Shown here one piece after another: positions 12,454 through 58,966 of a DNA stretch of 64,000 bases. Each line of letters begins with the position of its first letter. The first letter of the stretch is position 1. The position numbers were made by a program, and so were the translations under genes. The stretch covers positions 125,587-189,586 of the forward strand of contig JBFXDD010000005.1 of assembly GCA_050181465.1 (NCBI GenBank), given 5' to 3'. This DNA comes from Planctomycetota bacterium. GTDB taxonomy: Bacteria; Planctomycetota; UBA1135; UBA2386. The notes beneath the pieces were generated by a model. It worked only from the letters and a program-made list of their open reading frames with translations. It was not told the DNA's origin and searched no databases.

Positions 12454-12642
12454 GAAGCCTGGACTGGACTCTTCGTGAACGTCTGATGCGATCGTCGCCA
12501 TTCTCGCCGCGCCACGTCGCTACGTCGGCTCCGCCCTGGCTGTGTAGCTACGGCTACGCTTCGGTCATCGCTCCACGCAGCCCCTTGCCGTCCATCGACC
12601 TGCGTCCATCTCGCGACGACGTTCACGAATAGTCCGGCCTAG
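12454..12642 (-). repeat. Nested-palindrome intergenic element, long form (copy G, reverse orientation)
   Basis: The reverse complement begins CTAGGCCGGACTATTCGTGAACGTCGTCGCGAGATGG and matches copies C and F along its length, including the inner GTAGC-NNNN-GCTAC hairpin. It lies between the lexA stop and the CDGSH gene start. The left boundary is approximate. Confidence 0.85.
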
Positions 12643-12651
12643 ACTGGGCGA

Positions 12652-12936
12652 ATGCCCGACGAACCCAATCGGCCAACCCCTCCCGAAGCACCCGGCCGAG
12701 TACAGAATCGACCCTTCGTGGTGTCGTGCTCACCCGGCAAGTACGCCTACTGCCAGTGCCAACGAAGCGCGCGATTCCCGTTCTGTGATGGAACTCACCG
12801 CGAATTGGTCGCCGCTGGAACCGACATCGGCCCCATGAAGGTGGTGCTCGACGACGAGAAGATGGTCGCCTGGTGCTGCTGCGGAAAGTCCGGGAAGAAG
12901 CCCTTCTGCGACGGATCTCACGCGCGAGCGGAGTGA
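12652..12936 (+). CDS. CDGSH iron-sulfur domain protein (two CDGSH motifs)
   Basis: Two copies of the C-x-C-x2-(S/T)-x3-P-x-C-D-G-(S/T)-H signature: CQCQRSARFPFCDGTH and CCCGKSGKKPFCDGSH. Confidence 0.85.
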   Translation: MPDEPNRPTPPEAPGRVQNRPFVVSCSPGKYAYCQCQRSARFPFCDGTHRELVAAGTDIGPMKVVLDDEKMVAWCCCGKSGKKPFCDGSHARAE

Positions 12937-13526
12937 GACTTGGCCGGGGTGGTCGCGGTCCTCACTCCCGCGGAGACGACCGACGCTTCCAACTCGAGTA
13001 GAGCCTGCTTGATCGCGACACCACCGGTGTAGCCGGTGGCCTTGCCGTCGCTACCGATCACCCGGTGACAGGGAACGACCAGCGCGACGGGATTGGTCGC
13101 GTTCGCGCGTGCCACCGCGCGCCATGCCGTCGGGCGACCGATCCTCACGGCAAGCTCGCGATAGGTGAGAGTCTTGCCGTAAGGAATCCTCCGAACGACC
13201 TTCCAGACCGACTCCTGAAACGGAGTGCCGCGGACTGCGACCGGAAGATCTACGACCTTCGACTTGCCGGTCACGAACTCACGCACGGCCGCAACTGACT
13301 TGGCGCACAGTCGCGGACGCTCCTCGATCGCCGAGAAACGCGATCGCAACTCCTCCAGCGCCGATTCCAGTTCGCTGGTCTCACTTCCTTCGGCCAGGAA
13401 GCGGAGCCCAACCAGGGCCTGTCCCGAATCGACCGCAACCAGAACGCGCCCGACGCTCGAGGTGCCGACCGACCAGGCGATCGGCTCGGCAGATTCGCGA
13501 TTCGAAGTGCGAGAGGTGGTTCTCAT
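12918..13526 (-). CDS. ogt: Methylated-DNA--protein-cysteine methyltransferase
   Basis: Active-site motif VPCHRVIGSDG, with the preceding region IPYGKTLTYRELAVRIGRPTAWRAVARANATNP. Start set at MRTTS (13526) and is uncertain. The 3' end overlaps the convergent CDGSH gene by 19 bp. Confidence 0.85.
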   Translation of the reverse strand: MRTTSRTSNRESAEPIAWSVGTSSVGRVLVAVDSGQALVGLRFLAEGSETSELESALEELRSRFSAIEERPRLCAKSVAAVREFVTGKSKVVDLPVAVRGTPFQESVWKVVRRIPYGKTLTYRELAVRIGRPTAWRAVARANATNPVALVVPCHRVIGSDGKATGYTGGVAIKQALLELEASVVSAGVRTATTPAKSHSARA

Positions 13527-13566
13527 GCGACAGCAGTGCGATCGCATGAGCAAGAAAAGCGCTCGC

Positions 13567-19646: not shown

Positions 19647-19720
<74 letters not shown>

Positions 19721-20084: not shown

Positions 20085-21095
20085 GTGGCGAAATCCAAGC
20101 CGATGCTGCCGAATCGATCGCAAGACCAAGCAGAGAACCGAACGCCGTGGCGTTGGTCATGGCCGCTCATGACGGGCGCGCTCGCAATCGCCGCGTCGAT
20201 TGCATGGACGACAGCTCCGTGGATGATCACGGGAGGAGATGACGGTGGAGATGGAGCCGCGCCCAATGGAGTGCTCGCGGCAGCACCCGCCGCGATGCCG
20301 CAGGGCGGATTGGTCGACACTGACGGCGACCTCTTGCCGGACTGCGTGGAGTTGCCGCTGTTGCTGGATCCGAGTGCGGTCGATAGCGACAGCGACGGGA
20401 TCGACGACTTCCTCGCCGCCGCGCAGTTCCGGCGACCCTTCGACCATCCTGGTTCGCCGCGACCGATGGACGACGAGATGCGGGTGGTGGTCTCCGCCTC
20501 GGAGAACGTCGCCGGGGTCGAGTCGGTGTGGGTCCACTTCCTCTTCCGATTCGTCGGCGCGAATCTCGGCGAACTGCGTGGGATCACACCCTTCCTGGAT
20601 CTCTCGGGCACGCGCTACTCGTTTGCCAGCATGATCGGCGCCGGCGGCGTCGCCATGAGCACCCGAGTGGATCCCGTCGAGGGGCTCTTCTGCGTCGCCT
20701 CCTTCGAATTGCTCAATCTGGAAGCTTTGCGGAACATCCTGCCGTGCACGGTGGGTGCGACCGCGATGGTGGGCAGCCGACTGATCCATTCGGGGGCATA
20801 TCTTCAGGACGTCGCCGGGGTCGTCACGGTGCTCACCGCCGCCGACGACGACAAGGGAATGGTTGTCCCGCTCGATCCAGCTGCCACGGACGATCCCTTC
20901 TGGACCTCGGCGCGAATCTGCGTCATGCAGTTGGAGGTCATGTCCACGACGCCGAGCGGTTCGCTCTGCGAGGTGCGCAACGCGGAATGCATGTCGAGCG
21001 GTCGCCTAGCCTGTCCGCCGACTTGCCTGCAATCGCGGGGCTCGTCGATGTTCTTCCCCAACGGGTTGGGGACCGTGACCGGCAGCGGCCGCTAG
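20085..21095 (+). CDS. Secreted hypothetical protein with thrombospondin-type-3-like Asp-rich calcium-binding repeat
   Basis: Motif DTDGDLLPDCVELPLLLDPSAVDSDSDGIDDF. The likely signal peptide begins at MTGALAIAASIAW (ATG 20169), so the true start may be 20169 rather than GTG 20085. The TAG stop lies inside repeat copy H. Confidence 0.45.
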   Translation: MAKSKPMLPNRSQDQAENRTPWRWSWPLMTGALAIAASIAWTTAPWMITGGDDGGDGAAPNGVLAAAPAAMPQGGLVDTDGDLLPDCVELPLLLDPSAVDSDSDGIDDFLAAAQFRRPFDHPGSPRPMDDEMRVVVSASENVAGVESVWVHFLFRFVGANLGELRGITPFLDLSGTRYSFASMIGAGGVAMSTRVDPVEGLFCVASFELLNLEALRNILPCTVGATAMVGSRLIHSGAYLQDVAGVVTVLTAADDDKGMVVPLDPAATDDPFWTSARICVMQLEVMSTTPSGSLCEVRNAECMSSGRLACPPTCLQSRGSSMFFPNGLGTVTGSGR

Positions 21096-21213
21096 TCCGA
21101 AGGATTCGTGAGCATCTGCTGCGATCGCCGCAAGCCGCGCTCGGCGGCGGCGCTACGTGCCGAGCATCGACCTGTGGCGATCTCGCGACGACGTTTCCGA
21201 ATAGTTCGGGCTG
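21092..21213 (-). repeat. Nested-palindrome intergenic element, medium form (copy H, reverse orientation)
   Basis: The reverse complement CCAGCCCGAACTATTCGGAAACGTCGTCGCGAGATCGCCACAGGTCGATGCTCGGCA...CCGCCGCCGAGCGCGGCTTGCGGCGATCGCAGCAGATGCTCACGAATCCTTCGGACTAG aligns end to end with copy F, apart from an internal deletion of roughly 64 bp. Confidence 0.88.
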
Positions 21214-21428
21214 GGCATTCGCTCCGGCAGCTCGTTGCCCCGGTGGAGTCAGTGCGGCATTGAGTGCGGTATGAGCCCCTTGTACGCTCCAAGCCGCTCT
21301 CCTCGACGGACTTCGGTCAGATTCCCAATTCGGGCCGAGCCCCTCTCACGCGCGGACTTTCCACACCGTTACGGAACATCCGGATCGGTCCTGGTCGTCC
21401 GAACCGCCATCCGCTGCCGTCTCCACTC

Positions 21429-24550: not shown

Positions 24551-25132
24551 TCCGCGTCTCCTTGACGCATCGCCCCGTGGCCGCCGCTTCGCCACCACGG
24601 CTGGTGGTGCCGGTGTTCAAGAACTCCTGAGTGCCCTGCGGAGTCGCTGAGCAGAGTCTTCCCGGCTCGCGCGGCTGCGACGGCCGAGCCGACGGCGCGA
24701 CATCGGCGCATCCGAACTCTCTTCCAGGACTCTAGAGCGTCGGCTCACGACGATTCCCCACCTCGGAGCGCGCGTCCTGTCACCGCGAATCGGCCCCATT
24801 CCTCGCCTGTCGGGTGCCCCGTCGAACGTTCTCCACAGTTCGAACGACCTGAAGATCAGGTCGGTGACAAGCCACGAAACCAAGACCAACAACAAGACAT
24901 CGCTCGGCCAGGAGTCCGGCAAGCAGCGGCGGCTGCTCCCATCGACGGCGAAGCTCGCGAAACCTCGCAGCGACCCGCTCCTGAAGGCATTCGACGGTGT
25001 TCCCCAGGGGCCGTGCAGCTACATTCTCGGGGCTCGCTAGGCCGCACCCTCTCCCCTACCTCGAACCGTCGCGGGGAGAGGTTGGCGTGCTCCTCGAGCC
25101 TCCGTGCACCGGCCCTTTCCCCGCCCCAAGAC

Positions 25133-26226
25133 ATGAAGATCCTCTGCGATCGGCAAGAGTTGCAGGATGCCTTCGCCGCTGTCAGTGGCATCCCGCCCGT
25201 CAAGAGCACCAAGACGGTCCTCCAGAACGTCTTGCTGCGTGCCGAGCCCGAGCGTGTCGTGTTCCTCGCGACCGACAACGAGATGACCGCACGCGCCACG
25301 CTCCGGTCCGTGAAGGTATCGGAACCCGGCAGCATCCTGCTTCCCTGCCGAGAGACGAGTGCGCTGATTCGCGAACTGAGCGAGCCGACGGTCGCGATCA
25401 AGGCCAGTTCGGACCGCTGTCGGATCGAGAGTGGTTCCGGTTCGTTCGATCTCCTGAGTGCGGATGTCGATCAGTTCCCGCCGGAGCCCAAGCTGCAGGC
25501 CGAAGTCGAACTCGAGGTTTCGATGAAGGACATCCTGCAGATGTATCGGCGAACGTCCTTCGCCTGCGCCAAGGAAGAGACTCGTTACGCCATCAACGGT
25601 GTGCTCATCGATTTCGTCGACGGCTGTCTTCGGATGGTCGGCACCGATGGTCGTCGCCTCGCCCTCGCCTACACCAACATCGCCACCCAGGCTCCGCGCA
25701 TCCGAGCGGTGGTGCCGCTCCGCGCCCTGAATGCCTTGACCAAGGCGTTCGCCGACGACAGCGAAGCCATGTTGACGATCGGCATCGCGCGATCGCAGAT
25801 TCGCTTCGAAGCGGCTGGGAACCTGCTGGTTTCGCAGTTGCTGGACAACCGATTCCCCGACTACGAGCAGGTCATTCCGAAGGCCGCGGAGACGGTCATC
25901 GAAGTGGACCGACAGGAACTGGAACGCAACCTCCGCCGCGTTGCGGTCCTCGCTTCGAACGACATCCGCATGGTCGCTCTCGAATTCGCCGACGGCAATC
26001 TCGACATGCGCGCGGAGAGTTCCAGCGTCGGCAAGGCCCATCTCACGATGGCTGTCGACATGAAGGGCAAGCCCGTCAAGATGGGATTCAACCCCGACTT
26101 CCTCATCGAAGCCCTGCGCGTCTCCGAGTTGGACACGATTCGTATCGACGTCGTCGACGGTTCGGTTCCGATCAAGTGCGCGCTCGGTGAGTCCTATAGC
26201 TACATCCTCATGCCGATCGGCGCGTC

Positions 26227-26230
<4 letters not shown>
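25133..26230 (+). CDS. dnaN: DNA polymerase III beta subunit (sliding clamp)
   Basis: Start at ATG 25133 (MKILCDRQELQDAFAAVSGIPPVKSTKTVLQNVLL). It has typical clamp features (FLATDNEM, RYAINGVLIDF, MVGTDGRRLA, SYILMPI). Confidence 0.92.
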
Positions 26231-28975
<2,745 letters not shown>

Positions 28976-32076: not shown

Positions 32077-32209
32077 TCGACCTCCTCGTCCAGGCGGGCT
32101 CGACCGATTGTCGAGTTCTGCGGCAGAGTGGCACGACGGACCGTCGCCGCCGAGTACATCGACCTGGTCGCATTCAAGTCCCCGATCCGATCGCGTCGAT
32201 CCGTTCCCC

Positions 32210-45752: not shown

Positions 45753-45816
45753 GCCGGGGCTGCGGGGTGGCGTATTCGAGCGTGGGGAGTGTCGCTCTGT
45801 CCATCTTCGCCACCGA

Positions 45817-47733: not shown

Positions 47734-47757
47734 GGGGTGTTCCCGAGGTCAGCAGCC

Positions 47758-47941
47758 CTAGCCCGAACTATTCGCGAACGTCGTCGCGAGATCGACACAG
47801 GTCGATGCCTGCCAAGGAGCTACGACGGTCCACGACCGAAGCGTAGCCGCAGCTACGCGGCCAGGGAGGAGCCGTCGTTGCGACGCAGCTCGGCGCGAGT
47901 TGTGGCGATCGCAGGAGACGTTCACGAGTAATCCGGGCTGG
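47758..47941 (+). repeat. Nested-palindrome intergenic element, long form (copy C)
   Basis: The sequence runs CTAGCCCGAACTATTCGCGAACGTCGTCGCGAGATCGACACAGGTCGATGCC...GCGTAGCCGCAGCTACGC...GCGCGAGTTGTGGCGATCGCAGGAGACGTTCACGAGTAATCCGGGCTGG. It has the same ends and core as the short form plus a ~90-bp internal module. Confidence 0.9.
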
Positions 47942-47984
47942 CCCGTTGCTCACCGGTTCTTGCCCATCGGTGGACTCGACGCCG

Positions 47985-48005
47985 CGTGAATGATCATCAT
48001 TCACG
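47985..48005. repeat. Perfect 9-bp-stem hairpin between repeat copies C and D
   Basis: CGTGAATGA-TCA-TCATTCACG was read directly from the sequence. The stem shares the CGTGAA/TTCACG motif of the repeat-family arms. Confidence 0.8.
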
Positions 48006-48020
48006 TCATGAATGGATTTC

Positions 48021-48116
48021 TTAGCGCGGACGACTCTTGAACGTCGTCGCGAGATCGACGCAGCCGGGCGCGAGTTGTGGCGATCACAGCAGACGTTCAC
48101 GAGTCGTCCGGGCTGG
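48021..48116 (+). repeat. Nested-palindrome intergenic element, short form (copy D)
   Basis: Sequence TTAGCGCGGACGACTCTTGAACGTCGTCGCGAGATCGACGCAGCCGGGCGCGAGTTGTGGCGATCACAGCAGACGTTCACGAGTCGTCCGGGCTGG. The arm variant GGACGAC...GTCGTCC changes on both sides, which is compensatory. Confidence 0.92.
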
Positions 48117-48368
48117 ACTGGTCGAGGACGCCCTCTCCGAGCGTCTTGGTTCGATGCCGGCGATCGTCGTGACCGGGCATGGGAGCGCTTTCCTCTCAGG
48201 AGATCGCGGCCGGAGATTCTGGTCGATAGATATGATCGAGAGTCATGAGTTCCGTCAGGCGAGTCGGCTTACGAGGGTTCCCTCGGGAACGCAGGTGTCG
48301 ACTGCCCGCTTCCCTCGCCACTCTGACACCGAACTCATGTTCCCCGTTCAACCGGAAGCAAGGGACAA

Positions 48369-50297
48369 GTGACGAGCGAAGCTAACCTCCTCAAGTTCGC
48401 ACTTGCCGTCGGCGTGCTACTGCTGGTCGCCCTCGTCTCATGGATCGTCCTATCCGTGGACGCTGAGCGAACGGGAAGTATGGAATCCAGCCGAGCTTTG
48501 CGTTCGCAAGCGAACAACCACTCACGAGATGGAGTGAGCGGCATTGCGAACCCCGGGCTGGAACGCGCTCGTGTGAAGGTGGGGCAACTCACGGTTCGCG
48601 TTCTCGATTCGAAGTCGGCACCGCTCTCCACCGCCCAAGTGGCCGTCAGGTCGATGGGGCTGGAGGACGACTGGGAACTGCTCGGTGACGCCGGTGACGG
48701 TCGGTTCGCACTGCCGCCGCTGTCTCGATTCGAAGGGAATCTCGTCCAAGTTCAGGTCGTCGCTCCCGGGTTCCTGCCGCATCTGAGCCGGCACCAGGTT
48801 CCTGTGTCATCGAGTCCACAAGACGTCATCGAAGTCGTGCTGTTGGAGCCCGCCGTTCTGGATGTGATGGTTCGGTATTCCGACGGATCGCCCGCCACCG
48901 GGGTCCGGGTTTGCCTGCTGCCGACTCCTGGCAACTTGCGGGTCGAAGAGATCTCTCCCGGACTGTTGCTGGAGCGAGCGATCCTCAGGCGGCCGACTGA
49001 GGACGGAACCGTGTCGTTCACTGGCCTGCAGCCTGACGAACGATACGTGTGTGCCTGTCTTGCCGCGCACGACGACGGAACAACTCGCTCACCCGCGCTG
49101 GAGGTGCGTTCTCTCCTGTTGGCGGAGGGGCGCAACTCCGAGCCGATCCGACTGCCAGCGACCCGCATTCGGGGCGCATTCCTCTCTGCAATTCGGGCGG
49201 AGCGAGGTGAAGCAACACTGCTGTCCATCACCGGTGTGTCCAAAATGAATCGCCCACCGAGCTCCTCGCTCAGTGGGAAGACCATTAGCGAGCTCCTGCA
49301 GACGGATCTTGGCTCGAACGGCAGCTTCGAGTTCCTCGTTCATGAGCCGGGTCGATACGCCATATTGGCCTCCCGAAGCGCGGACAGAGACGTCTGGGTT
49401 GGCGCCTGGGACGTGGACGTGACGAAGCTCGGCATCGACATCGACCTCGGTCAGTTGTCCTCTGCGTCAAACTCCTCGGTACCGGTCCGCGTGGATCTCG
49501 ACGGTCTGGTCCCCGCCTCAGCAATCGAGGACTCGAGATTGGCGGTCAGAGTCGCCACCGGGAGGACGGGCGATCCGAGGTCCTCCGAGGATCTCTACTC
49601 GATCGGATTCCACATGGAGTTGGCTGCCGGCGTGCTCACGACAATTCACGGTCTACCGAACTTGACCGTGTTCTTTCATGCAAGAGAAGTCATCACTCCA
49701 GCGAAGATCGATCCCATTCCGCTGGCGATGCTCCCAAGCTGGAAGTGGAGCGAAGAACAATCTTCGCCGGCCACGCTGGTGGTATCGAGAGATCGTCGCC
49801 CGCGTGTTTCCTTCGTCGTGCATGGGGCGGATGTGCAACCGACTCAAGTCACGGGCTTGGTCATTCATCGAGACGACACTCGCAAGTCCGTCGTGATCTC
49901 GGCGGAAACGGTCACATGGAATCGCGAGGAGCAGGTGCTTCATGCCTTCTGCCGAGCGGACAGCGGCAGGTATAGGGCAGTGTTTCGTTGGAGGGCGGGA
50001 GAGGCGTTCGTCACGGCCGCCGGCGAGTTCGATGTCTTCGACGCGGACGTCTCGTCGGATGTCCGTCCAGCCGCATGCTCGATGGTCGAGTTCAGCGTGG
50101 ACACGGTGAACATCAGTACGCTTCCGGTTCTCAGCTTCGGCTTCGTGGGTAGCGATGAAGTCATCTCGGCGGTCCGGCCGTGGTCCGATGGGATCTATCG
50201 GATCGAGAGCGTCCCGGAGCATCAGTCCATCTGGGTCTACGGCTTGCCCAAGGGCGATTCGATTCGAACGGCCGATCGACGGATCACGTCTCGGTGA
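48369..50297 (+). CDS. Membrane-anchored protein with carboxypeptidase-regulatory-like repeats, function unknown
   Basis: GTG start at 48369. The N-terminal TM helix is KFALAVGVLLLVALVSWIVLSV. Repeats follow of the type LTVRVLDSKSAPLSTAQVAVRS...GDGRFALPPL. The gene is bracketed by repeat copies D and E. Confidence 0.5.
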   Translation: MTSEANLLKFALAVGVLLLVALVSWIVLSVDAERTGSMESSRALRSQANNHSRDGVSGIANPGLERARVKVGQLTVRVLDSKSAPLSTAQVAVRSMGLEDDWELLGDAGDGRFALPPLSRFEGNLVQVQVVAPGFLPHLSRHQVPVSSSPQDVIEVVLLEPAVLDVMVRYSDGSPATGVRVCLLPTPGNLRVEEISPGLLLERAILRRPTEDGTVSFTGLQPDERYVCACLAAHDDGTTRSPALEVRSLLLAEGRNSEPIRLPATRIRGAFLSAIRAERGEATLLSITGVSKMNRPPSSSLSGKTISELLQTDLGSNGSFEFLVHEPGRYAILASRSADRDVWVGAWDVDVTKLGIDIDLGQLSSASNSSVPVRVDLDGLVPASAIEDSRLAVRVATGRTGDPRSSEDLYSIGFHMELAAGVLTTIHGLPNLTVFFHAREVITPAKIDPIPLAMLPSWKWSEEQSSPATLVVSRDRRPRVSFVVHGADVQPTQVTGLVIHRDDTRKSVVISAETVTWNREEQVLHAFCRADSGRYRAVFRWRAGEAFVTAAGEFDVFDADVSSDVRPAACSMVEFSVDTVNISTLPVLSFGFVGSDEVISAVRPWSDGIYRIESVPEHQSIWVYGLPKGDSIRTADRRITSR

Positions 50298-50373
50298 AAC
50301 CACGAACCAGATCACATGACTGGTTCGGAACTCGCCTGAGGGTGATCTCTTGGGAGCACGGCGGACGCTCGTG

Positions 50374-50469
50374 CTAGCCCGGATCACGCGTGAACGTCGT
50401 CGCGACATCGACGCAGCCGGGCGCGAGTTGCGGCGATCGCAGTGGATCTCTACGAATCATCCGGGCTAG
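50374..50469 (+). repeat. Nested-palindrome intergenic element, short form (copy E)
   Basis: Sequence CTAGCCCGGATCACGCGTGAACGTCGTCGCGACATCGACGCAGCCGGGCGCGAGTTGCGGCGATCGCAGTGGATCTCTACGAATCATCCGGGCTAG. CTAG is present at both ends. Confidence 0.92.
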
Positions 50470-50497
50470 AACAGCCACCGCCTTGGGGTTTCCCGAC

Positions 50498-51829
50498 ATG
50501 CGAACTCGACTTCAGCAACAGCTCCTTCGTTTCGGATCGTGCCTGTTACTCGGGATGGCTGCCGGCCGCGCTCAGGACTGGGTCGCCCTCGACCAGGCCT
50601 GCGCTCGAGCCGCTGAGGCCGGATCCACGTTCTACGTGGTGGTCGCAGGCCGGAACACCGAACCGTTCATCCGCACAGCCGGCGAATTGCCTCGCGCGGC
50701 GCAGAACGGAACTCCGTTGCTTCCGCTCGGCGACGTGTCGCGAGTGCTGCTCGCCAGTCTCTTGCGTGCCGTTGCCGGCGACCAACGTATCGACATCGAC
50801 AAGCCGATCGTGCAGGAGGAGGACGCGACTCTCTGGGCACTTGGCCCACCGTTTACTCGATGGACCTGGAGAGAGGTCGTCAACGGGACTGCCGCTGGCG
50901 CTCTTCCAGCATGGCGATTCCTCGGGTCGGGAGACCGGGCACGCAGCTCGGCCGAGTTCCTTGCCGCGCACGCCCTGAAGGATGAGACCGCACGCTGGCA
51001 TCGAGTCGCGAGCAACGAATCGAGCCAGGTACCCGTCGCCGTTCTGCAGGCTGCACTCGAGCGTCGAACGGGGAAGAGTCTCGCAGCCTGGGTCCGCGAT
51101 GCGGGTGCGGCAGCAGGGTTGCCGAGTGCGTGTCTGAGCGACTCCGGGCTCGGCGGGTGTCCGAACGCCGAAATGGATGCCGCGCACGACTTGACGTTGA
51201 CCCCGACGGATCTTCCGCGCTTCCTGCGGGCGATGCTCGATCTCGACTTCAAGCTGAATGTGCACGGTCTGGAGCGGGTCTTCGGCCTGCAACCGACGGA
51301 CTTCGATTTCAGCATCTTCGGGAAGGGCTGCGATCGTCATGCACACGTAGATCGGTGGCGCGGCGCAACTTGCCGCGTGTCGACTTCGTTCGCCGGCGAC
51401 CACGTGTTCTTCTCCTGGTCCGGTGATTCCCGGGAACCAGATTTTCTCGAGGCGTTCCTGAGCGATCTTGACGAGGGCGATGTCCTGTACACGGGAGCAG
51501 TCGGCTACGGCGAACCTCGAGATCCGGAGGCAACCCATGGGATCGACGGCGAACAGGTTGCAGAGTTGAAGGATCTCGACGGCACGATCCGTCTCAGTCT
51601 CTCGGCTCCCGGCGATCAGCCCTGCGTTCGACTCGGCCCTCGCGAGGAGGTGATTCCTCTGACCCGGATCAGGGAGGATCTCTTTGCCGAGTTCGGACTG
51701 GGGGACACCAAGCGTGGTGTGTTGGACCTGCGCTTCGACGACGGTCGCTGGATCGGCACTCTGAGCACCTACGACAATCCACGCTACTGGCTGCCCTGGC
51801 GCATCACGTTCGAACGTGCCGGCCGTTGA
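50498..51829 (+). CDS. Secreted hypothetical protein, possibly a degenerate beta-lactamase/serine-hydrolase-like fold
   Basis: Start at ATG 50498 (MRTRLQQQLLRFGSCLLLGMAAGRAQ signal). LLPLGDVSRVLLASLLRAV resembles the G-S-x-S-K-x-x-TA region of class C/DD-peptidase-like hydrolases, but reads DVSR rather than SxxK. The upstream part of the tracked ORF begins inside repeat E. Confidence 0.4.
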   Translation: MRTRLQQQLLRFGSCLLLGMAAGRAQDWVALDQACARAAEAGSTFYVVVAGRNTEPFIRTAGELPRAAQNGTPLLPLGDVSRVLLASLLRAVAGDQRIDIDKPIVQEEDATLWALGPPFTRWTWREVVNGTAAGALPAWRFLGSGDRARSSAEFLAAHALKDETARWHRVASNESSQVPVAVLQAALERRTGKSLAAWVRDAGAAAGLPSACLSDSGLGGCPNAEMDAAHDLTLTPTDLPRFLRAMLDLDFKLNVHGLERVFGLQPTDFDFSIFGKGCDRHAHVDRWRGATCRVSTSFAGDHVFFSWSGDSREPDFLEAFLSDLDEGDVLYTGAVGYGEPRDPEATHGIDGEQVAELKDLDGTIRLSLSAPGDQPCVRLGPREEVIPLTRIREDLFAEFGLGDTKRGVLDLRFDDGRWIGTLSTYDNPRYWLPWRITFERAGR

Positions 51830-52179
51830 GCGACACTGACGTCGCCGACCACACTCGATACAGCGCCGTGCTTCGTTGGAGAACCGGTGAGGCGTTCGTT
51901 ACGGCCACCGTCGAGTTCGAGGTCTTCGACGAAGACGTCTCCTTGGATGTCCATTCAGCCGCAGGTTCGATCGTTGAGTTCAGCGCGGACCCGGTGAACA
52001 ACCGTGCGTTTCCGATTCTCAGCTTCGGCTTCGTGGGTAGCGATCACGTCTTGGCGAGTCGACGGAGCAGACACACGATTCGCTGCGGGCCCGGCGTTGT
52101 GAACCACTCGGCGGTCGGCAATCACCCATCCACGCGGCGCGCCGCGGTCTTCCACGCGCGCCACTCGCGGGTGAGATAG
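51826..52179 (+). pseudogene. Fragment homologous to the C-terminal part of the 48369..50297 gene (truncated paralogue remnant)
   Basis: The fragment reads HTRYSAVLRWRTGEAFVTATVEFEVFDEDVSLDVHSAAGSIVEFSADPVNNRAFPILSFGFVGSD. The full gene reads SGRYRAVFRWRAGEAFVTAAGEFDVFDADVSSDVRPAACSMVEFSVDTVNISTLPVLSFGFVGSD. DNA 51857-52044 aligns with 49969-50156, and the last ~29 bp are identical. Only ~60 aa are homologous. The TTG start overlaps the upstream stop, and the tail overlaps the convergent gene. Confidence 0.6.
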
Positions 52180-54926
52180 TCGACTTGGATCATGCCGCCC
52201 GTGTAGCGCCAGCCGTTCATCTCGAGCCAGGCGCCGTCGTCGGTGGAGCTTTGGATGTCGAGTTGATGACGAGGGACGTCGATCGTGAGTTGCTCGGCGA
52301 AGGCGCGCATGCCGCGCCACAACATGGATGCGTGGGTCGCGGCGAGCGATTGAACGCTGCCGCTGGTGCGATCGAGTGCCGCACGCAGTCGCAGCGTGGT
52401 GACATCGAGACCGAGAGGGTCGATCGAAGCGTCCCGACGCAGAGCGAGAATTCGTGAAGTGCCGTCGACCATCAGTTCGTCATCGGTCAGAACGATGGGC
52501 GACGACGCGATGACGCGCAGGTTGTCGAGATCACCGCCGTCGGTTCGTTCGCCGGCGTCGCTCACCGTCGCCGCGGGAGCGAGCAGGTCGATCTCCGGTG
52601 CCGATGATGGTCCCGGCCACAACTCGATGCGCGAACCGCCGGCAGCTTGCACGCCGCGGAGTCGATCGCCGCGCGCGAGTAGTCGCCGCCCGCTCGGCTC
52701 GATTCGTTCGAGGACGGCCGGCGAGCCGTGCAACATCGCTGCCGCCGACGAGGGCAGCAGGAAGAGCCGATCGCCCTGACTGCGTCCTTGATCCACCGCG
52801 GCAACGTCACGCCGCACCAGGAGGACATCGCGATCGGCGAGCACGGCCGGCTGCGTGATCGCCAGAGTCCACCGCGAACCCAGGCCGTGTGCGACCAGAA
52901 CGGCGCGCGGCAGAAGGGTCGGCAGAAAGGTGATGCGCCGCGAACTCAGCTCCGCGCTCTCAGCGGCGGCACCGACGGCGTTCTTGGTCCAGGCACCGCG
53001 CACTTCGGCGGGCGTCCCGCGCACGACGATCGCCGGTTGACCGATCGAGTGCGGCACCACATCGATTCGACCGCCGACCAGGGTCCCGCCGCCTTCCCGC
53101 TCGACGCGCGCCGGTGAGCCGAGAACCACGAGTCGCTGGCCGTCCCATGTCTCGATACGTTCGCCGAAGGTCCGAATCGCTTCCTGCCGACCCTTGCCGA
53201 CGTCGAGCGTGGTGGCGAACTCGACCGCGGGTCCGCTCGCGACGATCGAGCGCACGACCTCGCGTCCCTCGATCGATGCCTCGAGTGCCGCCACGCCGAC
53301 GACCTTGCCGCGATCGCTCTGCACGGTGACGTCGGCGACATCCGACCGCAGATCGAGAGCCACGCTGCCGAGCGTCGATCGTTCGATCACGCATCGGCCG
53401 GTGCCGTCGACGACGATCGGCTGACCCTTCGTCGGCACCGTCTCGACGTGAAAGCGCGACGGTGCGGCAGGATCCTCGCCCAGCTGCATCCGTTCGCCGA
53501 GCGGAGATCGCGAATACACGAACCCCTTCGCAGACTCCGCGAGCAGCTCCGGCGAGGTGATCATCGCTGCGTTCGCCGTGCGCGCGATCGCGAGCCCGGC
53601 GTCGCCGGCGAGGATGCGGATGCCGTCCTTGGCGACGATCGTGGACTCCTTCTTGTGATCGGTCAGCGTGGTCTGCTCTTCGAAGCGAAGGAGCCAGCGC
53701 GCCAGGAAACCGAGCCGCAGCGGATTGCCGCCGGCCAGCCGATGTTGCGGTGCCAGCCAACGTTCGAGGTCGACCAGCGATGCGCGGCCCTTGCAGCGCA
53801 CCGAGATTCCGCGCGCCGGGTCGTCGAGCTGCGGATTGCCGTCGGCGACGATCACCGCGGGCTCTCCCGCGAGCGACGGACGGACGACCAACTCCGCGCA
53901 GCGCACCACGAAGGTGTCGAACGCGACCCGCACCGGCGCGCCGCGAAGCAGCAGGTTGCGCCAAGCGCCATCGCCGCCGGCCAACGGTTCGACTGTCGCC
54001 GCGGGGGCCGCGGTGTTCCGCTGCAGCAACGCGATCAACTCCTCGGCTTCCCCGTTCACCGCCTTGCCGCCGGCGAACTCGCCGAGGATGCGCACCGCAT
54101 TGCGCATGGTGAGCCGACCGAACCCGGTGGCGACGTCCTCTCGGTATTGCAGCTTGCCGCTCGCCTGAAGGGTGCCGGCACGACTTCGCACGACGGGATC
54201 GTTGGCGATGTCGAATCGCAGAGTGCCGCCGACCTCGTCCTCGCCGCGAGGCACGAAGCCGTCGACGCCGCGACCGGTCATCGTCACTTCACCGGCCCCG
54301 AGCAGCTTGGCTTCGAAGGGCACCTGGTCGTCCGGGGTGCGCAGGTGAATCCCGCTGTCGTCCTGTCGCACGAGCGCGCGGGCGATCGCGATGCGGATGT
54401 CGGACTGCGACGAGCCGGGGACCGACGTCAGCACGATGTCCGCGAGGTCCATGTCGCGATCCTCGCGGATCGAGGGGCGACCCTCTTCGTCGCGGCCGAT
54501 CTGCACGAGCGCTTCGCGCGCGACGATCTTCGCCACCGCCTTCTCACTCGGCGGGTTCGTCGTCCGATCGACGCGATATACGTCGACCGTGACGCGATCG
54601 AGATGCACGAGGTCGGACGACACCGTCGCGCTGTCCTCGGCGACGAATCGGTAGCGGCGAAGCCGTCGCCTCGAACCGTCGGCGAGCGTGATCTCGACCT
54701 TCGGTTCGATCTGGAATCGCCCGCGCATCGACACCGCGACCGCGCTGTTGCGATCGCCGTCGGGATTGCCGATGACGATCTCGGGCGGCGGCCGTCGCGA
54801 GCTCTCGACCGGCTTCTTCGAGCCGCCGCTCCCCGTGCTCGCGAAGTTCTCGAAACCGATCGCGAAGTGCATGACGCCGAGGGCGACGACGATGAGCACG
54901 ATCGCGAGGAAGAGGCGGCGGATCAT
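52122..54926 (-). CDS. 934-aa membrane-anchored periplasmic protein, possibly an extended LptC/LptA (OstA-fold)-like protein
   Basis: N-terminal TM helix RRLFLAIVLIVVALGVMHF. The rest is long, beta-rich and repetitive (...VTVDVYRVD..., ...IVAREALVQ..., ...VRAFAEQLTIDV...). It lies 20 bp downstream of kdsD on the same strand. The function is inferred from position and composition only. Confidence 0.4.
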   Translation of the reverse strand: MIRRLFLAIVLIVVALGVMHFAIGFENFASTGSGGSKKPVESSRRPPPEIVIGNPDGDRNSAVAVSMRGRFQIEPKVEITLADGSRRRLRRYRFVAEDSATVSSDLVHLDRVTVDVYRVDRTTNPPSEKAVAKIVAREALVQIGRDEEGRPSIREDRDMDLADIVLTSVPGSSQSDIRIAIARALVRQDDSGIHLRTPDDQVPFEAKLLGAGEVTMTGRGVDGFVPRGEDEVGGTLRFDIANDPVVRSRAGTLQASGKLQYREDVATGFGRLTMRNAVRILGEFAGGKAVNGEAEELIALLQRNTAAPAATVEPLAGGDGAWRNLLLRGAPVRVAFDTFVVRCAELVVRPSLAGEPAVIVADGNPQLDDPARGISVRCKGRASLVDLERWLAPQHRLAGGNPLRLGFLARWLLRFEEQTTLTDHKKESTIVAKDGIRILAGDAGLAIARTANAAMITSPELLAESAKGFVYSRSPLGERMQLGEDPAAPSRFHVETVPTKGQPIVVDGTGRCVIERSTLGSVALDLRSDVADVTVQSDRGKVVGVAALEASIEGREVVRSIVASGPAVEFATTLDVGKGRQEAIRTFGERIETWDGQRLVVLGSPARVEREGGGTLVGGRIDVVPHSIGQPAIVVRGTPAEVRGAWTKNAVGAAAESAELSSRRITFLPTLLPRAVLVAHGLGSRWTLAITQPAVLADRDVLLVRRDVAAVDQGRSQGDRLFLLPSSAAAMLHGSPAVLERIEPSGRRLLARGDRLRGVQAAGGSRIELWPGPSSAPEIDLLAPAATVSDAGERTDGGDLDNLRVIASSPIVLTDDELMVDGTSRILALRRDASIDPLGLDVTTLRLRAALDRTSGSVQSLAATHASMLWRGMRAFAEQLTIDVPRHQLDIQSSTDDGAWLEMNGWRYTGGMIQVDYLTREWRAWKTAARRVDG

Positions 54927-54946
54927 CGGCGGGTCATGCGTGAACG

Positions 54947-55921
54947 TCAGCCGATGCGCAGGTCGAGCAGATCTTGCACGTCGAGGAGCCCGACCAGCCG
55001 ACCGTCGGCGGCCACGACCGGCAACTGGTCGACGCGGAAGTTGTGAAGGCTGGCGAGCGCTTCGATCGCGAAGGTGTCGGGCGAGATCGCGCGCGGGTTG
55101 CGGGTCATCACGTCGTCGATGCGCTGCGATCGTAGGTCTGTGACCGCAGCGGACTCGAGCAGCCGTCGCAGATCACCATCGGTGAAGAAGCCGACCAGCC
55201 GATCGCCCGAGTCGACCACGCTGGTGGCGCCGGGGCGGCCGGGGGTGCGGGTCATCACGCCGATCGTCTCGAGCAGGCTGACCCCGCTGCGCACGATCGG
55301 GTTACGGTCGCCGCGGCGCATCAGCTCCTCGACGCGCATCAGTCGCCGGCCGAGGTCGCCGCCGGGGTGGTAGCGCGCGAAGTCCTCCGGGCCGAAGTTC
55401 CGGCCCTCCTGGACCACGATCGCCAAGGCGTCGCCCAGGCACAGCATCGCGGTCGTGGACACCGTCGGCGCGAGCCGCAGCGTGCCGGCCTCTTCGAGAT
55501 CACCGAGCGCGAGCACGAGGTCGGCGTGCTTGGCGAGAGTCGACTCCCGCGATTGGGTCATCGCCACCACCCGGCAACCCACTGCCTTGACCGGGCCGAG
55601 CAGGCGCAGGACTTCTTCGGTTTCCCCCGACTTCGACAGGGCCAGCAAGAGGTCGCCGCGCGCAATGCGGCCCAGATCGCCGTGGATCGCTTCGGCGGGA
55701 TGCAGATAGATTGACGGCGTGCCGGTCGAGGCGAAGGTGGCGGAGAGCTTCTGCGCAATGATCCCGGCCTTGCCCATGCCGGCCGTGACCACGCGGCCGT
55801 CGAGGGCAAGGATCGCGTCGACCGTGCGGAGGAAGTCGCCGTCGACCCGCTCGGCCACCTGACGCAGGGCGTCGGCCTCGGTGGCGATGATCGCTCGTGC
55901 GCGCTGGATGCGGTCGTCCAT
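54947..55921 (-). CDS. kdsD: KpsF/GutQ-family arabinose-5-phosphate isomerase (SIS domain plus two CBS domains)
   Basis: Start at ATG 55921 (MDDRIQRARAIIATEADAL). The SIS motif is GRVVTAGMGKAGIIAQKLSATFASTGTPSIYLHPAEAIHGDLG...LSKSGETEEV. A C-terminal CBS pair follows. Confidence 0.9.
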   Translation of the reverse strand: MDDRIQRARAIIATEADALRQVAERVDGDFLRTVDAILALDGRVVTAGMGKAGIIAQKLSATFASTGTPSIYLHPAEAIHGDLGRIARGDLLLALSKSGETEEVLRLLGPVKAVGCRVVAMTQSRESTLAKHADLVLALGDLEEAGTLRLAPTVSTTAMLCLGDALAIVVQEGRNFGPEDFARYHPGGDLGRRLMRVEELMRRGDRNPIVRSGVSLLETIGVMTRTPGRPGATSVVDSGDRLVGFFTDGDLRRLLESAAVTDLRSQRIDDVMTRNPRAISPDTFAIEALASLHNFRVDQLPVVAADGRLVGLLDVQDLLDLRIG

Positions 55922-56032
55922 CAGGTGCGGGGTACCAGCGCGGATTATGCGCTGTCTCGCCGGCAACTGCGATCGCGGTCAGCAGGTCTGGACCACTTCG
56001 CGCGCGCGCCCCCCTCGCGTAGACTCCGCGTG

Positions 56033-56863
56033 ATGTCCTACCGGGTCGATCTGCCGGTCTTTTCAGGCCCGCTGGATCTGCTGCTCCACTTGGTGAAGCA
56101 GCAGGAGGTGGACGTCCACGAGATCAGGATTGCAGCGATCCTCGACCAATACCTTCGACATCTCGAAGTCCTGCGCGAACTCGACCTCTCCGACCTCGGC
56201 GATTTCCTGGTGATGGCCAGCACGCTGATGGAGATCAAGTCGCGCGAGATGCTTCCGAACGAGACCGTCGAAGTGGAGGCCGAGTTGGACCCCCGCGACG
56301 ACCTCATCCGTCGACTGCTCGAGTACAAGCGCTATCGCGACCTGTCCCGCCGACTCGATCGCCTGGCCCAGCGGCGCGCGCGGATGGTCGACGTCGCCTT
56401 GCCCTTGCCCGAGGCCGTGCAGGACACCTGGAAGCGCCGCGAGGAGAACGCCGACGGCCTCGACCTGGGCGACATCGAGATTTGGACCCTCACTGCGGCC
56501 TTCGCCAAGCTGCTGGAAGAGACCGGCTCGCAGCGGAGCACGCTGGAGATCGAGGTGGACAAGCGCGGCATGCGCTACTTCGTCGACGACGTGCTGTCGC
56601 GCACGCGCGGCAAAGGCGAGGTTCGATTCGAAGCACTGTTTGCCGAGAGGACCGGGCGATTGGCGCTCATCGGAGTCTTCATCGCCGTGCTCGAAATGAT
56701 GAAGCAGGGCGTACTGCGCGCCTGGCAAGGCGACCGCCATGGCGAGATCCTCGTGATCTATCGCGGCGATGAATCCCTCACCGCCGACCAGATCCTGGCC
56801 GGCGGCGAACGGCTCGACGAAGAAGCCCCCATCGAGATCGAGCCCGAACCGACCGAGGACTGA
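56033..56863 (+). CDS. scpA: Segregation and condensation protein A
   Basis: Start at ATG 56033. The sequence MSYRVDLPVFSGPLDLLLHLVKQQEVDVHEIRIAAILDQYLRHL...FLVMASTLMEIKSREMLP is the typical ScpA N-terminus. Confidence 0.85.
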   Translation: MSYRVDLPVFSGPLDLLLHLVKQQEVDVHEIRIAAILDQYLRHLEVLRELDLSDLGDFLVMASTLMEIKSREMLPNETVEVEAELDPRDDLIRRLLEYKRYRDLSRRLDRLAQRRARMVDVALPLPEAVQDTWKRREENADGLDLGDIEIWTLTAAFAKLLEETGSQRSTLEIEVDKRGMRYFVDDVLSRTRGKGEVRFEALFAERTGRLALIGVFIAVLEMMKQGVLRAWQGDRHGEILVIYRGDESLTADQILAGGERLDEEAPIEIEPEPTED

Positions 56864-56866
56864 ACC

Positions 56867-58780
56867 ATGACTCTTCGGAGCCTGCTCGTCGGCACCATTC
56901 TCATGGGGATGGTGGCGGTGCAGTATTCCCCTGCTCTCGAGCCACCCAGAGCAGCACAGCGCGCGGCGGATTCTCAGCATCTCGTGACGGCGCATCGCGT
57001 GGCGGTGATTCTCCGGCGCGCCGACGGCACGCCCTGGGCGGACGCGCACGTCCATGCTCGAGCGGGCTACTGGACGCCCGGCTGGGTGCTGCCCGGCTCG
57101 CCGCAGGCGGACGGCAAGAGCGACGCGAACGGTCGCTGCATCCTGTCGCTGGCGCCGTGCACGGAACACTGGATCTGGGCGGAGTCGGCGACGGACGACG
57201 GGAAGCGATGGATCGCGGATGCGGTCTCCTTGCGAGCCGAGAAGTCGGTGCGATTGGTCGCGCGACCCGATCCGGTCGGACCCACGATTCTTCGGCTGCG
57301 AAGCCAAGAAGACCGTTGCGCACGGGTGCGCGTTCGCGATCGCGCGTTGGGCTGGGAGCGGGAGTTCGAGGGGCTGCCCACCGAGTTGCGACTCGAAGCG
57401 CCGCCGTCGCCGTGGCTCGAAGTCGTGGTGTTCGATCCGGAGAGCCGGCCGAGTCTGCTGGTGGATGTTCAGAACGACGGCCGCGAGCACGTGATCGAGC
57501 CGGAGAGCACGCGTGTGCAGGAGGTCGTCGTCGTCGCGCCGCCGGCCGGCATCGATCCTGCGGATCTTCGCTTGCAGCTCTGGCATCGTGGCGAGACCTT
57601 CGATCTCGCCGCCTTCGATGCGCAGGGTCGCACCCGTTTCGACTTCGATCGCTGGCAGGGGCTCGTCGACGGCCGCGGGCAGTGCGCGAAGCAGTCGGGA
57701 AGTGCCTATGTGGTGAACGGTGACGCGATCGACCCGGTGGTGATCGACCTCGTCTGGTCGGACTACCGGCGCCCGGACACGACTCTCCCGATCCCGGTTC
57801 ATGTGCGAGCGCGCGAGCGCACGGGCGGGTGGTTTCGCATCCAACTCGGCGGGGAGGAGCTCGACCACGCCTCACTGCGCCGAGCGGTCGAGCTCGAGCA
57901 CGCGCACGGCGAACGGCGGAATCCGATCCGGTTTGCCTTGGACGAGCGCCTCGCTGGTCGTCGCGTGCCGTTGTCGATGAGCTTGAAAGAGTTCCCGCTC
58001 TGGTTGACCGGAGCCGCGCGGAGCGACGCAGCGCTAGCACGACAATGGCAGCCTTGGCTGGACGGAGTCGTGCCGATCCTCCTCGATGTTCCGCCGGATT
58101 CGGCGAGCCCGCCGCAGATCGACCTCGATCTGGCGACGGACTTCGTTCGCTGCGAACTGACCTTCGTCGGTGTCGATCGATTGCCGCTCGCAGACCAGTT
58201 CGTGCGCTGGTGGGTGCGACCGTCCGATCACGCCTGGCGCATGGATGTGCGCACCGATCCGAAGGGTGTCGCGCGGTTTCTCCTCCCGAAGAAGCTGACG
58301 AGTGACGCCTGGTGTTGGCATGTCTCGCCGCAGGGCTGGACCAGCTTCCTGCTCAATGAGCTTGCGATCGCCGAAGTCGCGAGGCGGACCGGCGTTCTTC
58401 GGGCCGAGATCCAGATGCTGCCGGTGCATCGGGTCCGCCTGGCCTGCGCCGAGCCGATGGACGTCACGCTGGCCGTGCGGTTCGACGACCAGCGATTGGA
58501 TCCGATTCCCGCTGCGGCCGTCTCCGACCGACCCGAGTGGATCGCCGTCGCTCGTCCCGAGAACGCGCTCGCTGGTTTCCGCGAGATCTACGAGTTCCGC
58601 ACGTACCGGCTGCCCGACGACCTGATCGCGGTCCCCGCACTGCCGCTGCGCAGCGTGATCCACCTCCGTTCACGGGTGACCGACGGCCAGCGACCCGAGG
58701 GCTTCCGGCGCCCGACCAACTTCGCGATCGAGGCATCGGTCGAGCCGCAAGTTCTCGAGTTCGTGCTGGAGCAGAGGTGA
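56867..58780 (+). CDS. Secreted or membrane-anchored hypothetical protein (637 aa)
   Basis: Hydrophobic N-terminus (SLLVGTILMGMVAVQ). At least one carboxypeptidase-regulatory-like segment is present (VAVILRRADGTPWADAHVHA...DANGRCILSL). It starts 4 bp after scpA, where scpB would normally be, but does not resemble ScpB. Confidence 0.45.
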   Translation: MTLRSLLVGTILMGMVAVQYSPALEPPRAAQRAADSQHLVTAHRVAVILRRADGTPWADAHVHARAGYWTPGWVLPGSPQADGKSDANGRCILSLAPCTEHWIWAESATDDGKRWIADAVSLRAEKSVRLVARPDPVGPTILRLRSQEDRCARVRVRDRALGWEREFEGLPTELRLEAPPSPWLEVVVFDPESRPSLLVDVQNDGREHVIEPESTRVQEVVVVAPPAGIDPADLRLQLWHRGETFDLAAFDAQGRTRFDFDRWQGLVDGRGQCAKQSGSAYVVNGDAIDPVVIDLVWSDYRRPDTTLPIPVHVRARERTGGWFRIQLGGEELDHASLRRAVELEHAHGERRNPIRFALDERLAGRRVPLSMSLKEFPLWLTGAARSDAALARQWQPWLDGVVPILLDVPPDSASPPQIDLDLATDFVRCELTFVGVDRLPLADQFVRWWVRPSDHAWRMDVRTDPKGVARFLLPKKLTSDAWCWHVSPQGWTSFLLNELAIAEVARRTGVLRAEIQMLPVHRVRLACAEPMDVTLAVRFDDQRLDPIPAAAVSDRPEWIAVARPENALAGFREIYEFRTYRLPDDLIAVPALPLRSVIHLRSRVTDGQRPEGFRRPTNFAIEASVEPQVLEFVLEQR

Positions 58781-58966
58781 GCCACCCTGACTATTCGTGA
58801 ACGTCGTCGCGAGATCGCCGCAGGTCGATGCTCGGCATGGAGCTACGTCGTGCGACGACCGAGGCGTAGCCGTAGCTACGCTGCCAGGGAGGAGCCGCCG
58901 CCGCCGCGCCGCCGCCGAGCGCGGCTTGCGGCGATCGCAGCAGATGTTCACGAATAGTTCGGGCTA
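58781..58966 (+). repeat. Nested-palindrome intergenic element, long form (copy F)
   Basis: The sequence runs ...CTGACTATTCGTGAACGTCGTCGCGAGATCGCCGCAGGTCGATGCTCGGCA...GCGTAGCCGTAGCTACGC...GAGCGCGGCTTGCGGCGATCGCAGCAGATGTTCACGAATAGTTCGGGCTAG. The left terminus has diverged, so that boundary is approximate. The right terminal TAG is the stop codon of the convergent gene. Confidence 0.88.

Follow-up and report, generated by a model that had tools for sequence, protein, structure and literature searches.

Hairpin-forming intergenic repeats in a landfill planctomycete: a probable family of CTAG-targeting miniature inverted-repeat transposable elements

What kind of element is represented by the long, nested palindromes that recur between the genes of an uncultured planctomycete? 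We addressed this question for a stretch of 64,000 nt, referred to here as the window, from Planctomycetota bacterium (GCA_050181465.1, contig JBFXDD010000005.1, 125,587-189,586 of the forward strand). The source is a metagenome-assembled genome (MAG) from a landfill, with the locus-tag prefix AB7I19 and a G+C content of 65%; RecQ, MlaE and other proteins encoded in the window have their best matches in Planctomycetota, and the gene content includes DUF1579, Ser/Thr kinase and extracytoplasmic function (ECF) sigma genes. One of the encoded proteins is 100% identical to AB7I19_04770 of the MAG. A first-pass annotation had noticed eight intergenic loci with a shared sequence and had considered a MITE (miniature inverted-repeat transposable element), a composite of repetitive extragenic palindromic (REP) sequences of the type of bacterial interspersed mosaic elements (BIMEs), or a structured RNA or terminator module. 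The results described below make it probable that the repeats are copies of a non-coding hairpin MITE that is mobilized in trans and inserted at the tetranucleotide CTAG.

The eight loci were readily recovered. An element-derived 20-mer, with up to three mismatches allowed, matched exactly these eight loci, compared with 0.07 matches expected in shuffled sequences, and the coordinates given in the first-pass annotation were right to within 1-5 nt. Neither an nhmmer profile built from the copies, a kind of model that the annotation had proposed, nor a sensitive blastn search revealed a copy in the window beyond the eight, for which the profile E-values range from 1e-28 to 1e-38. The profile scores are 90-123 bits in the forward orientation vs. 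16-34 bits in the reverse orientation, so that the element is an imperfect palindrome with a genuine polarity, and the inversion of copies G and H relative to copies A-F was thereby borne out. A ninth copy was found on a Logan contig (L053) that extends across the left edge of the window, and additional copies, with 78-91% identity and unrelated flanks, are present on three other contigs (L012, L036 and L042). Altogether, the family set comprises 12 copies: eight in the window, the ninth on L053, and the three on L012, L036 and L042. They are dispersed, nine in about 64 kb and three on the other contigs, and their flanks are not homologous. Several of the alignment statistics given below cover 11 copies. 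The copies along the contig are as follows, with boundaries that include the flanking tetranucleotides.

L053 1-134, minus strand: ninth copy, long form, ending 2 nt before window position 1
12459-12642, minus strand: copy G, long form of 184 nt, the most decayed copy; termini in element orientation 5' CTAG and 3' CCAG
21092-21214, minus strand: copy H, intermediate form of 123 nt, hairpin apex deleted
31981-32076, plus strand: copy A, short form of 96 nt; left CTAA, right CCAG
32811-32903, plus strand: copy B, short form of 93 nt; CTAG at both ends
47758-47941, plus strand: copy C, long form of 184 nt
48021-48116, plus strand: copy D, short form of 96 nt, 79 nt after copy C; flanks TTAG and CTGG
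50374-50469, plus strand: copy E, short form of 96 nt; CTAG at both ends, 3' arm decayed
58785-58967, plus strand: copy F, long form; core 58785-58963 and CTAG at 58964-58967, left CTAG missing

Thus, the orientations of the nine copies read - - - + + + + + + along the contig: all three copies left of 21.2 kb are in the minus orientation, all six right of 32.0 kb are in the plus orientation, and the switch lies between 21214 and 31981. The ninth copy is located upstream of the first gene, at a distance of 12 nt from its ATG, and carries two substitutions in an otherwise conserved 17-mer (see below), and its far end lies beyond its contig. Two of the three outlying copies, on L012 and L036, came from a scan of a genome collection with a 19-mer, a pattern too unspecific for this purpose, with 37 of the 39 matched loci being chance matches; the third, on L042, was the one real extra copy in a scan of Joint Genome Institute (JGI) metagenomes with a degenerate 23-mer, next to six chance matches. 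The contigs L012 and L036 are assigned to 'Dehalococcoidia bacterium CA_2019_TPBF_80' (JBFWUX01), which stems from the same landfill project as the MAG of the window, and they carry planctomycete-like genes; among the proteins encoded on L012 are ECF sigma and CarboxypepD_reg proteins that resemble those of the window. Both contigs are probably mis-binned pieces of the same population and do not constitute independent evidence.

The copies fall into three size classes, a short form of 93-96 nt (A, B, D and E), an intermediate form of 123 nt (H) and a long form of 184-187 nt (C, F, G and the copies on L012, L036, L042 and L053); the core measures about 180 nt in the long form and about 92 nt in the short form. 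In the alignment, the short form corresponds to a long form that has lost the hairpin apex, with the deletion lying between 8-nt direct repeats (CGACRCAG), and copy H has a different, smaller apex deletion. Judged from the alignment, the long form is the parental architecture, and the short and intermediate forms are apex deletions of it. Because the four short copies have the same deletion end points, the short form has most probably spread as a subfamily of its own. All copies have terminal inverted repeats (TIRs) of 21-25 bp, the ends of the element match CCCGGAYNAYTCGTGAACG, the terminal tetranucleotide of the element is CTAG at both ends and pairs with its partner, and the interior is a second, imperfect palindrome. 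In copy A, for example, the two most characteristic features are located as follows.

31985-32005, plus strand: left TIR (consensus CCCGGAYNAYTCGTGAACGTC), pairing with 32052-32072
32000-32016, plus strand: conserved 17-mer motif of the 5' arm, GAACGTCGTCGCGAGAT, with a run of 13 invariant columns across 11 copies

The long hairpin that had been predicted from the outer inverted repeats and the inner palindrome was confirmed. Each copy folds as one long interrupted hairpin, with a z-score between -4 and -7 in seven of the window's copies and of -3 in the decayed copy G, and with folding energies from -49 to -111 kcal/mol in the window and down to -136 kcal/mol overall. In the outer stem of 20 pairs (alignment columns 5-25 with 163-183), 90.2% of the cells are paired across the 11 copies. 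Copy D indeed carries GGACGAC...GTCGTCC, with the change on both arms, as had been pointed out. A test of arm covariation, as proposed in the first-pass annotation, gave a weak signal: four pairs, including the D variant, are changed on both sides, but 59 of 500 shuffles reach the same count, and the covariation score is only modestly above the control. The numbers of G:U pairs are symmetric between the strands (53 vs. 49), so nothing points to an RNA of one particular strand. The plus orientation folds more stably in nine of the 11 copies. Conservation is distributed unevenly over the hairpin. The copies differ by 7-17% from the family consensus, whereas within GAACGTCGTCGCGAGAT a change is found only in copy E among the 11 aligned copies, and the partner of this motif in the 3' arm is variable; the probability of the run of 13 invariant columns is 1e-5 under uniform substitution and 0.0017 under column shuffling. 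There is no sign of conserved coding capacity: no conserved mini-open reading frame (ORF) and no conserved pair of Shine-Dalgarno motif and start codon were detected in the apex of the long form, a mini-ORF of the L012 copy is not kept in copy C, and no Pfam-bearing ORF lies over the copies.

The most informative evidence came from a comparison with a relative of the source organism, which was found by protein searches in two JGI metagenomes and has about 89% nucleotide identity to the window. The proteins of the two genomes are 94% (RecQ), 98% (MlaE) and 90% (a 934-aa protein) identical. The examined sequence of the relative amounts to 57 kb on the contigs L047, L048 and L049/L050, and the following blocks are collinear.

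Window 20335-42216 with L048: 86-93% nucleotide identity
Window 42552-47736 with L047: 87% nucleotide identity
Window 52122-63999 with L049/L050: 87-91% nucleotide identity

The relative is collinear with roughly 39 kb of the window, and of the eight copies it lacks six (H, A, B, C, D and F); no copy of the element was detected in the 57 kb examined. Copies H, A, B and F are the only interruptions inside the collinear blocks. Past recQ, the homology of the relative stops 3 nt after the recQ stop codon, just before copy C, which is absent; copy D is absent as well, with the sequence around it aligned by eye. At five sites, the junctions could be aligned.

Junction A: relative GCGCG-CTAG-TCGGAC, window GCGCG-CTAA-(core)-CCAG-TCGACC
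Junction H: relative GGTCG-CTGA-GCACC, window GGCCG-CTAG-(core)-CTGG-GCATT
Junction B: relative CAGTCG-CGCG-GGGG, window CAGTCG-CTAG-(core)-CTAG-GGGT
Junction D: relative GGATTT-G-CAGG-T-CTGGTCGA, window GGATTT-C-TTAG-(core)-CTGG-A-CTGGTCGA
Junction F: relative TGA-GCGA-CTAG-ATCC, window TGA-GCCA-(core)-CTAG-ATCC

At four of these five sites, the filled locus has two tetranucleotides and the empty locus has one; the exception is F, with a single CTAG. The tetranucleotide of the empty site is exactly CTAG at two of the five sites, A and F. At site A, the single CTAG of the relative consists of a C and a TAG stop codon, and at site F the stop codons of the two convergent genes of the relative are only 4 nt apart. 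A target duplication that extends outside CTAG was considered and rejected, as the adjoining 4 nt on the two sides differ at A, B and E. The third codon positions of the two genomes have diverged by 19-21%, compared with the 7-17% by which the copies deviate from their consensus, and the insertions are therefore consistent with dates around or after the split of the two genomes and with the lack of a very recent burst. Outside the blocks, the region from 47737 to 52121 of the window is not collinear with the relative (L047 11894-16303; L049 12806-19608), which has a tyrosine integrase island after recQ, and a PIN/RHH toxin-antitoxin pair and an ABC/MacB transporter after the gene for the 934-aa protein.

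The significance of a coincidence between insertion sites and CTAG depends on how common this tetranucleotide is. In the window, CTAG occurs only 21 times, while 204 occurrences are expected from the base composition, a depletion of about ten-fold, and eight of the 21 are termini of the element. CTAG is equally depleted in the relative (14 vs. 178 expected). Among the CTAGs of the relative, five can be matched to a counterpart in the window; two of these are the sites at which copies A and F are inserted. CTAG or a variant that differs by one transition flanks the element on both sides in 10 of the 12 copies, with the left side of F and the ninth copy as the exceptions. The decayed termini read CCAG or CTGG, each one transition away from CTAG, and the left flanks of A and D are CTAA and TTAG, respectively. 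None of the seven comparable CTAGs outside the element is conserved between the two genomes. CTAG thus turns over fast, and it is unsurprising that the empty sites at H, B and D do not read CTAG; plausibly, they are decayed targets. A genome that avoids CTAG retains many of its CTAGs as a C followed by a TAG stop codon, and for this reason copies adjoin or supply stop codons (A, F and the copy on L036). Copy H adjoins a stop codon too, yet the empty site in the relative is CTGA.

Taken together, these properties, namely, a size of 93-187 nt, the lack of conserved coding sequence, the TIRs, the dispersed copies and the filled and empty sites, are those of a MITE. Bacterial MITEs of less than 200 bp that have TIRs, end in TA, form long stem-loops and occur in long and short variants are well documented (PMC2229807). 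Of the possibilities raised in the first-pass annotation, it is the MITE that gains strong support, from the TIRs, the flanking CTAG, the six filled/empty polymorphisms and the location of sites at rare CTAGs of the relative. In the most probable scenario, a transposase encoded elsewhere in the genome would insert the copies at CTAG, and each insertion would duplicate either the central TA, in the manner of IS630/Tc1-mariner, or all four bases, in the manner of the IS5 group. As CTAG would survive largely in the form of C+TAG stop codons and in spacers, insertions would land at or beside the ends of genes and would replace stop codons or the last few codons. For IS5-group elements, the duplicated target is a 4-bp YTAR sequence, for example CTAG or CTAA; the planctomycete element has CTAG, CTAA and TTAG as flanks, which fit YTAR, and its termini are C-TA-G. 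In the case of IS630, insertion takes place at the TA inside CTAG, and this TA is duplicated, as stated in PMC2170065 with reference to Tenzen & Ohtsubo (1990/1991). Because CTAG is its own reverse complement, duplications of 2 bp and 4 bp are inseparable at these junctions, and either class of transposase would fit.

Several observations weigh against a CTAG-targeting MITE and have to be set against this evidence. The palindromic nature of CTAG makes a duplicated target formally inseparable from a terminal CTAG that is carried by the element and inserted beside a CTAG without duplication. IS200/IS605-type elements insert next to their target in this way, without duplicating it. Copy F has CTAG on one side only, and three of the five empty sites (H, B and D) are not CTAG, which requires a rapid decay of CTAG that we infer in turn. 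The conservation of the 17-mer on one arm and the - - - + + + + + + pattern of orientations are not predicted for a simple, neutrally evolving MITE. The searches brought to light no autonomous element or transposase whose ends match, and none is present within the window. Finally, loss from the relative, instead of gain in the lineage of the window, would also fit the comparison of the two genomes, so that gain is the polarity that we infer.

Among the described bacterial repeats, the Correia/NEMIS elements of Neisseria offer a set of parallels, without any sequence relationship. They are likewise non-coding, with TIRs of about 25 bp, one long stem-loop and long and short forms (PMC2229807), they duplicate a TA at their termini, as the planctomycete element appears to do, they share filled/empty polymorphism between strains and proximity to genes, and they are co-transcribed with neighbouring genes (PMC2229807). 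The two forms of Correia/NEMIS, of about 155 and 107 bp, differ by an internal segment (PMC2229807), whereas in the planctomycete element the hairpin apex is deleted between 8-nt direct repeats; moreover, the target is the full CTAG rather than TA alone, the host phylum differs, and the present family has no known site for integration host factor or promoter function. ERIC/IRU elements (RU-1) of enterobacteria are imperfect palindromes as well (about 127 nt for ERIC), are intergenic and transcribed, vary in size by indels and occur in two orientations (PMC2229807), but have very short TIRs (7 bp in the table of PMC2229807) and no specificity for CTAG. RUP of Streptococcus pneumoniae and other MITEs derived from IS630 are small, non-coding TIR elements inserted at TA, and RUP is inferred to be mobilized in trans by IS630-Spn1 (PMC2229807). 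In that case, the cognate insertion sequence (IS) is known from the similarity of the TIRs, whereas no partner was found for the planctomycete family, in which a 2-bp duplication is indistinguishable from a 4-bp one. IS5-group ISs and MITEs are matched by the YTAR-like flanks and by the single tetranucleotide kept at the empty sites, but the TIR bears no verifiable resemblance to the ends of the IS5 family. The first-pass annotation was right that the length and density of the repeats exceed those of a classical REP, but neither is unusual among bacterial MITEs, for example ERIC, Correia/NEMIS, RUP and YPAL (PMC2229807).

The alternative that survives best is movement as single-stranded DNA. 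A REPIN-like or IS200/IS605-type hairpin element would be mobilized by a Y1 transposase of the HUH class, that is, a REP-associated tyrosine transposase (RAYT) or TnpA, which would recognize the foot of the hairpin and cleave at CTAG, without true duplication and with the orientation coupled to replication. There is a general likeness to REPIN and REP-BIME repeats, which are dense, intergenic and hairpin-forming, measure about 100 nt when REPs are paired, have a polarity and carry a conserved tetranucleotide at the foot (PMC3733652). In the window, too, the whole element is one hairpin of clear polarity with a conserved tetranucleotide at its foot, the core of copy F sits beside a single CTAG, conservation is asymmetric, with the 17-mer and its 13 invariant columns on one arm, and the plus orientation is the more stable one in most copies. 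The change from three minus copies to six plus copies takes place in an interval that holds dnaN (25013-26230) and gyrB (26522-28975). Nevertheless, we consider such an element unlikely. REPs are 20-40 nt long, possess an unpaired GTAG or CGTC tag, cause no target duplication and are associated with flanking RAYT genes (PMC3733652), a set of features that was not seen here: the units are 93-187 nt long with perfect terminal repeats of 21-25 bp, they have no such tag, and the target tetranucleotide appears to be duplicated, being present, intact or with one transition, on both sides in all but two copies. The REP/BIME option of the first-pass annotation is hence not supported, on grounds of length, tag and target. 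Pfam scans of 30 ORFs, together with the annotation of homologous loci, revealed no transposase, integrase or Y1 gene in the window, in line with the earlier statement that transposase, RAYT-like and integrase genes are missing from it. The G:U counts given above are symmetric. For a replication origin at dnaN, which might explain the switch of orientation, the signs amount to one near-consensus DnaA box (24829) without an AT-rich stretch, and the per-gene skew of G and C at third codon positions has the same polarity on both sides, with no switch across the window.

A broader version of this alternative, which we regard as equally doubtful, has two parts that may apply separately or together. 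In the first, the hairpin element would move at CTAG as single-stranded DNA, with the help of Y1/HUH or another structure-specific enzyme and with its orientation locked to the direction of replication. In the second, the near-invariant GAACGTCGTCGCGAGAT would be a putative protein-binding site that the element has carried to the 3' ends of genes, dozens to hundreds of them. If true, replication-locked movement of single-stranded DNA would account for the three minus copies to the left and the six plus copies to the right of the dnaN-gyrB interval.

Less likely still is a module that functions in the RNA of the host, namely, a hairpin in 3' untranslated regions that would terminate transcription or stabilize or destabilize mRNAs and that would owe its maintenance to selection and not to transposition. 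At first sight, the placement of the copies appears to favor this explanation: every copy of the window is intergenic and lies 0-76 nt downstream of a stop codon, and in tandem-gene contexts six of seven copies are co-directional with the upstream gene. The genes concerned are as follows.

Copy G: 50 nt after the lexA stop codon, between the convergent genes lexA (plus) and ogt (minus)
Copy H: its CTAG supplies the TAG stop codon of gene 20085-21095; upstream of an ECF sigma gene
Copy A: its left CTAA holds the TAA stop codon of the ABC/MlaE fusion gene 30467-31984
Copy B: after a small MshEN-like gene, inserted into the TatA-like gene 32884-33366 (minus, convergent) at its 3' end
Copy C: 24 nt after the recQ stop codon
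Copy D: after recQ, downstream of copy C
Copy E: 76 nt after the stop codon of gene 48369-50297
Copy F: between two convergent genes, its right CTAG containing the stop codon of gene 58964-59857 (minus)

The hairpins are very stable, with -49 to -136 kcal/mol; canonical terminators with a U-tract are scarce in the region 47000-59500 (1 vs. 5.2 in shuffles); the 17-mer persists despite the overall decay of 7-17%; and there is a precedent in Yersinia, where ERIC influences how stable the upstream mRNA is, in a manner that depends on the orientation of the element (PMC2229807). However, this placement is accounted for by the CTAG target, and both orientations of the element occur. Six of the eight sites are empty in the relative, in which the proteins are 90-98% identical, and thus the genes do not need the element. 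The element has no U-tract; the terminator scan of 47000-59500 reported no copy, and the 3' flanks of the copies are GC-rich. Rfam contains no match to copies C and D even at E<=1, and the covariation of the outer stem is weak, with four pairs and as many in 59 of 500 shuffles. The structured RNA or terminator that had been envisaged in the first-pass annotation is therefore not supported as the primary identity of the element, in view of the two orientations, the missing U-tract, the lack of an Rfam match and the weak covariation. A secondary exaptation of MITE hairpins in the 3' ends of mRNAs is possible by analogy with ERIC, and a transcribed hairpin might then affect termination or mRNA stability; a non-mobile origin, however, does not fit.

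An artefact, in the form of chance similarity of GC-rich palindromes or of misassembly, could be suspected in a genome that has 65% G+C and is rich in CGATCG and TCGCGA palindromes and whose short-read contigs break at the copies, but it is refuted by eight matches vs. 0.07 expected, profile E-values of 1e-28 to 1e-38, a copy in an unrelated dataset (L042), and independent Logan assemblies that are 100% identical to the window right into the copies. Indeed, the Logan contigs, from the runs SRR27751815 and SRR27751816 of a project on a closed Southern California landfill (bioRxiv 10.1101/2024.05.30.596742), are 100% identical to the window, and thus the repeats are not an assembly artefact. Four of these contigs (L051, L052, L054 and L055) end inside copies E, F and G, at the window positions 50413, 58917 and 12581, because a multi-copy repeat breaks the assembly. 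In practical terms, this calls for caution in assembly and binning: contigs are interrupted at the copies, and two contigs with a copy ended up in a 'Dehalococcoidia' bin.

The first-pass annotation had not recognized the repeats as a described family, and as far as searches of Rfam, plasmids, viral contigs and the literature reach, no match was found. With the gathering threshold, Rfam detected only a tRNA-Arg in the whole window, and at E<=1 it detected nothing over 47700-48200, the region of copies C and D, so that the Rfam search proposed earlier has been run and yields no family match to the element. Searches of viral contigs and of a plasmid collection with the whole element and with the TIR as queries were likewise without a match. 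The family itself thus appears to be undescribed, but it is of a well-known kind, a MITE, and the knowledge of MITEs in general is unchanged by it. What the probable CTAG-targeting MITE adds is a clean example of a distribution that is set by a strongly avoided tetranucleotide, a handle on the avoidance and turnover of CTAG, and a record of mobile-element activity in a barely sampled planctomycete lineage. The element also rewrites gene ends: two genes have had their stop codon replaced, and the TatA-like gene its last six codons. In the latter case, copy B encodes, at 32884-32903, the last 6 codons and the TGA stop codon, and the C-terminal tail of the protein differs from that of the relative (160 vs. 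159 aa). Follow-up is merited by the specificity for CTAG in a genome starved of CTAG, the way in which gene ends are rewritten, the 17-mer with its asymmetry and the pattern of orientations.

Some minor observations were made in the surroundings of the copies. Between copies C and D, downstream of recQ, there is a small palindrome, GTGAATGATCATCATTCAC (window 47986-48004), which is kept in the relative (L047 11917-11936) and could be an operator or a terminator. The 57-60 nt beside copy A (32077-32136), which include a small hairpin (CTCGAC-CGATT-GTCGAG), are absent from the relative; a second repeat family was considered for these extra 57 nt and rejected, as their sequence is unique in the window. 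Near copy E, a direct repeat of 192 nt with 84% identity is found at 49971-50162 and 51859-52050, and the 3' part of gene 48369-50297 recurs, as a duplicate, in the small ORF 51826-52179. With respect to oligonucleotide composition, TTAA is absent from all 64 kb, and the ratios of observed to expected occurrences in the window are 8.9 for CGATCG, 4.7 for TCGA and 3.8 for GATC. The 8-mer GCGATCGC, which is the HIP1 sequence of cyanobacteria, occurs 37 times in the window vs. 2.4 times expected (for example, at 5661, 21121, 32040, 47905 and 58931), and the element itself carries it.

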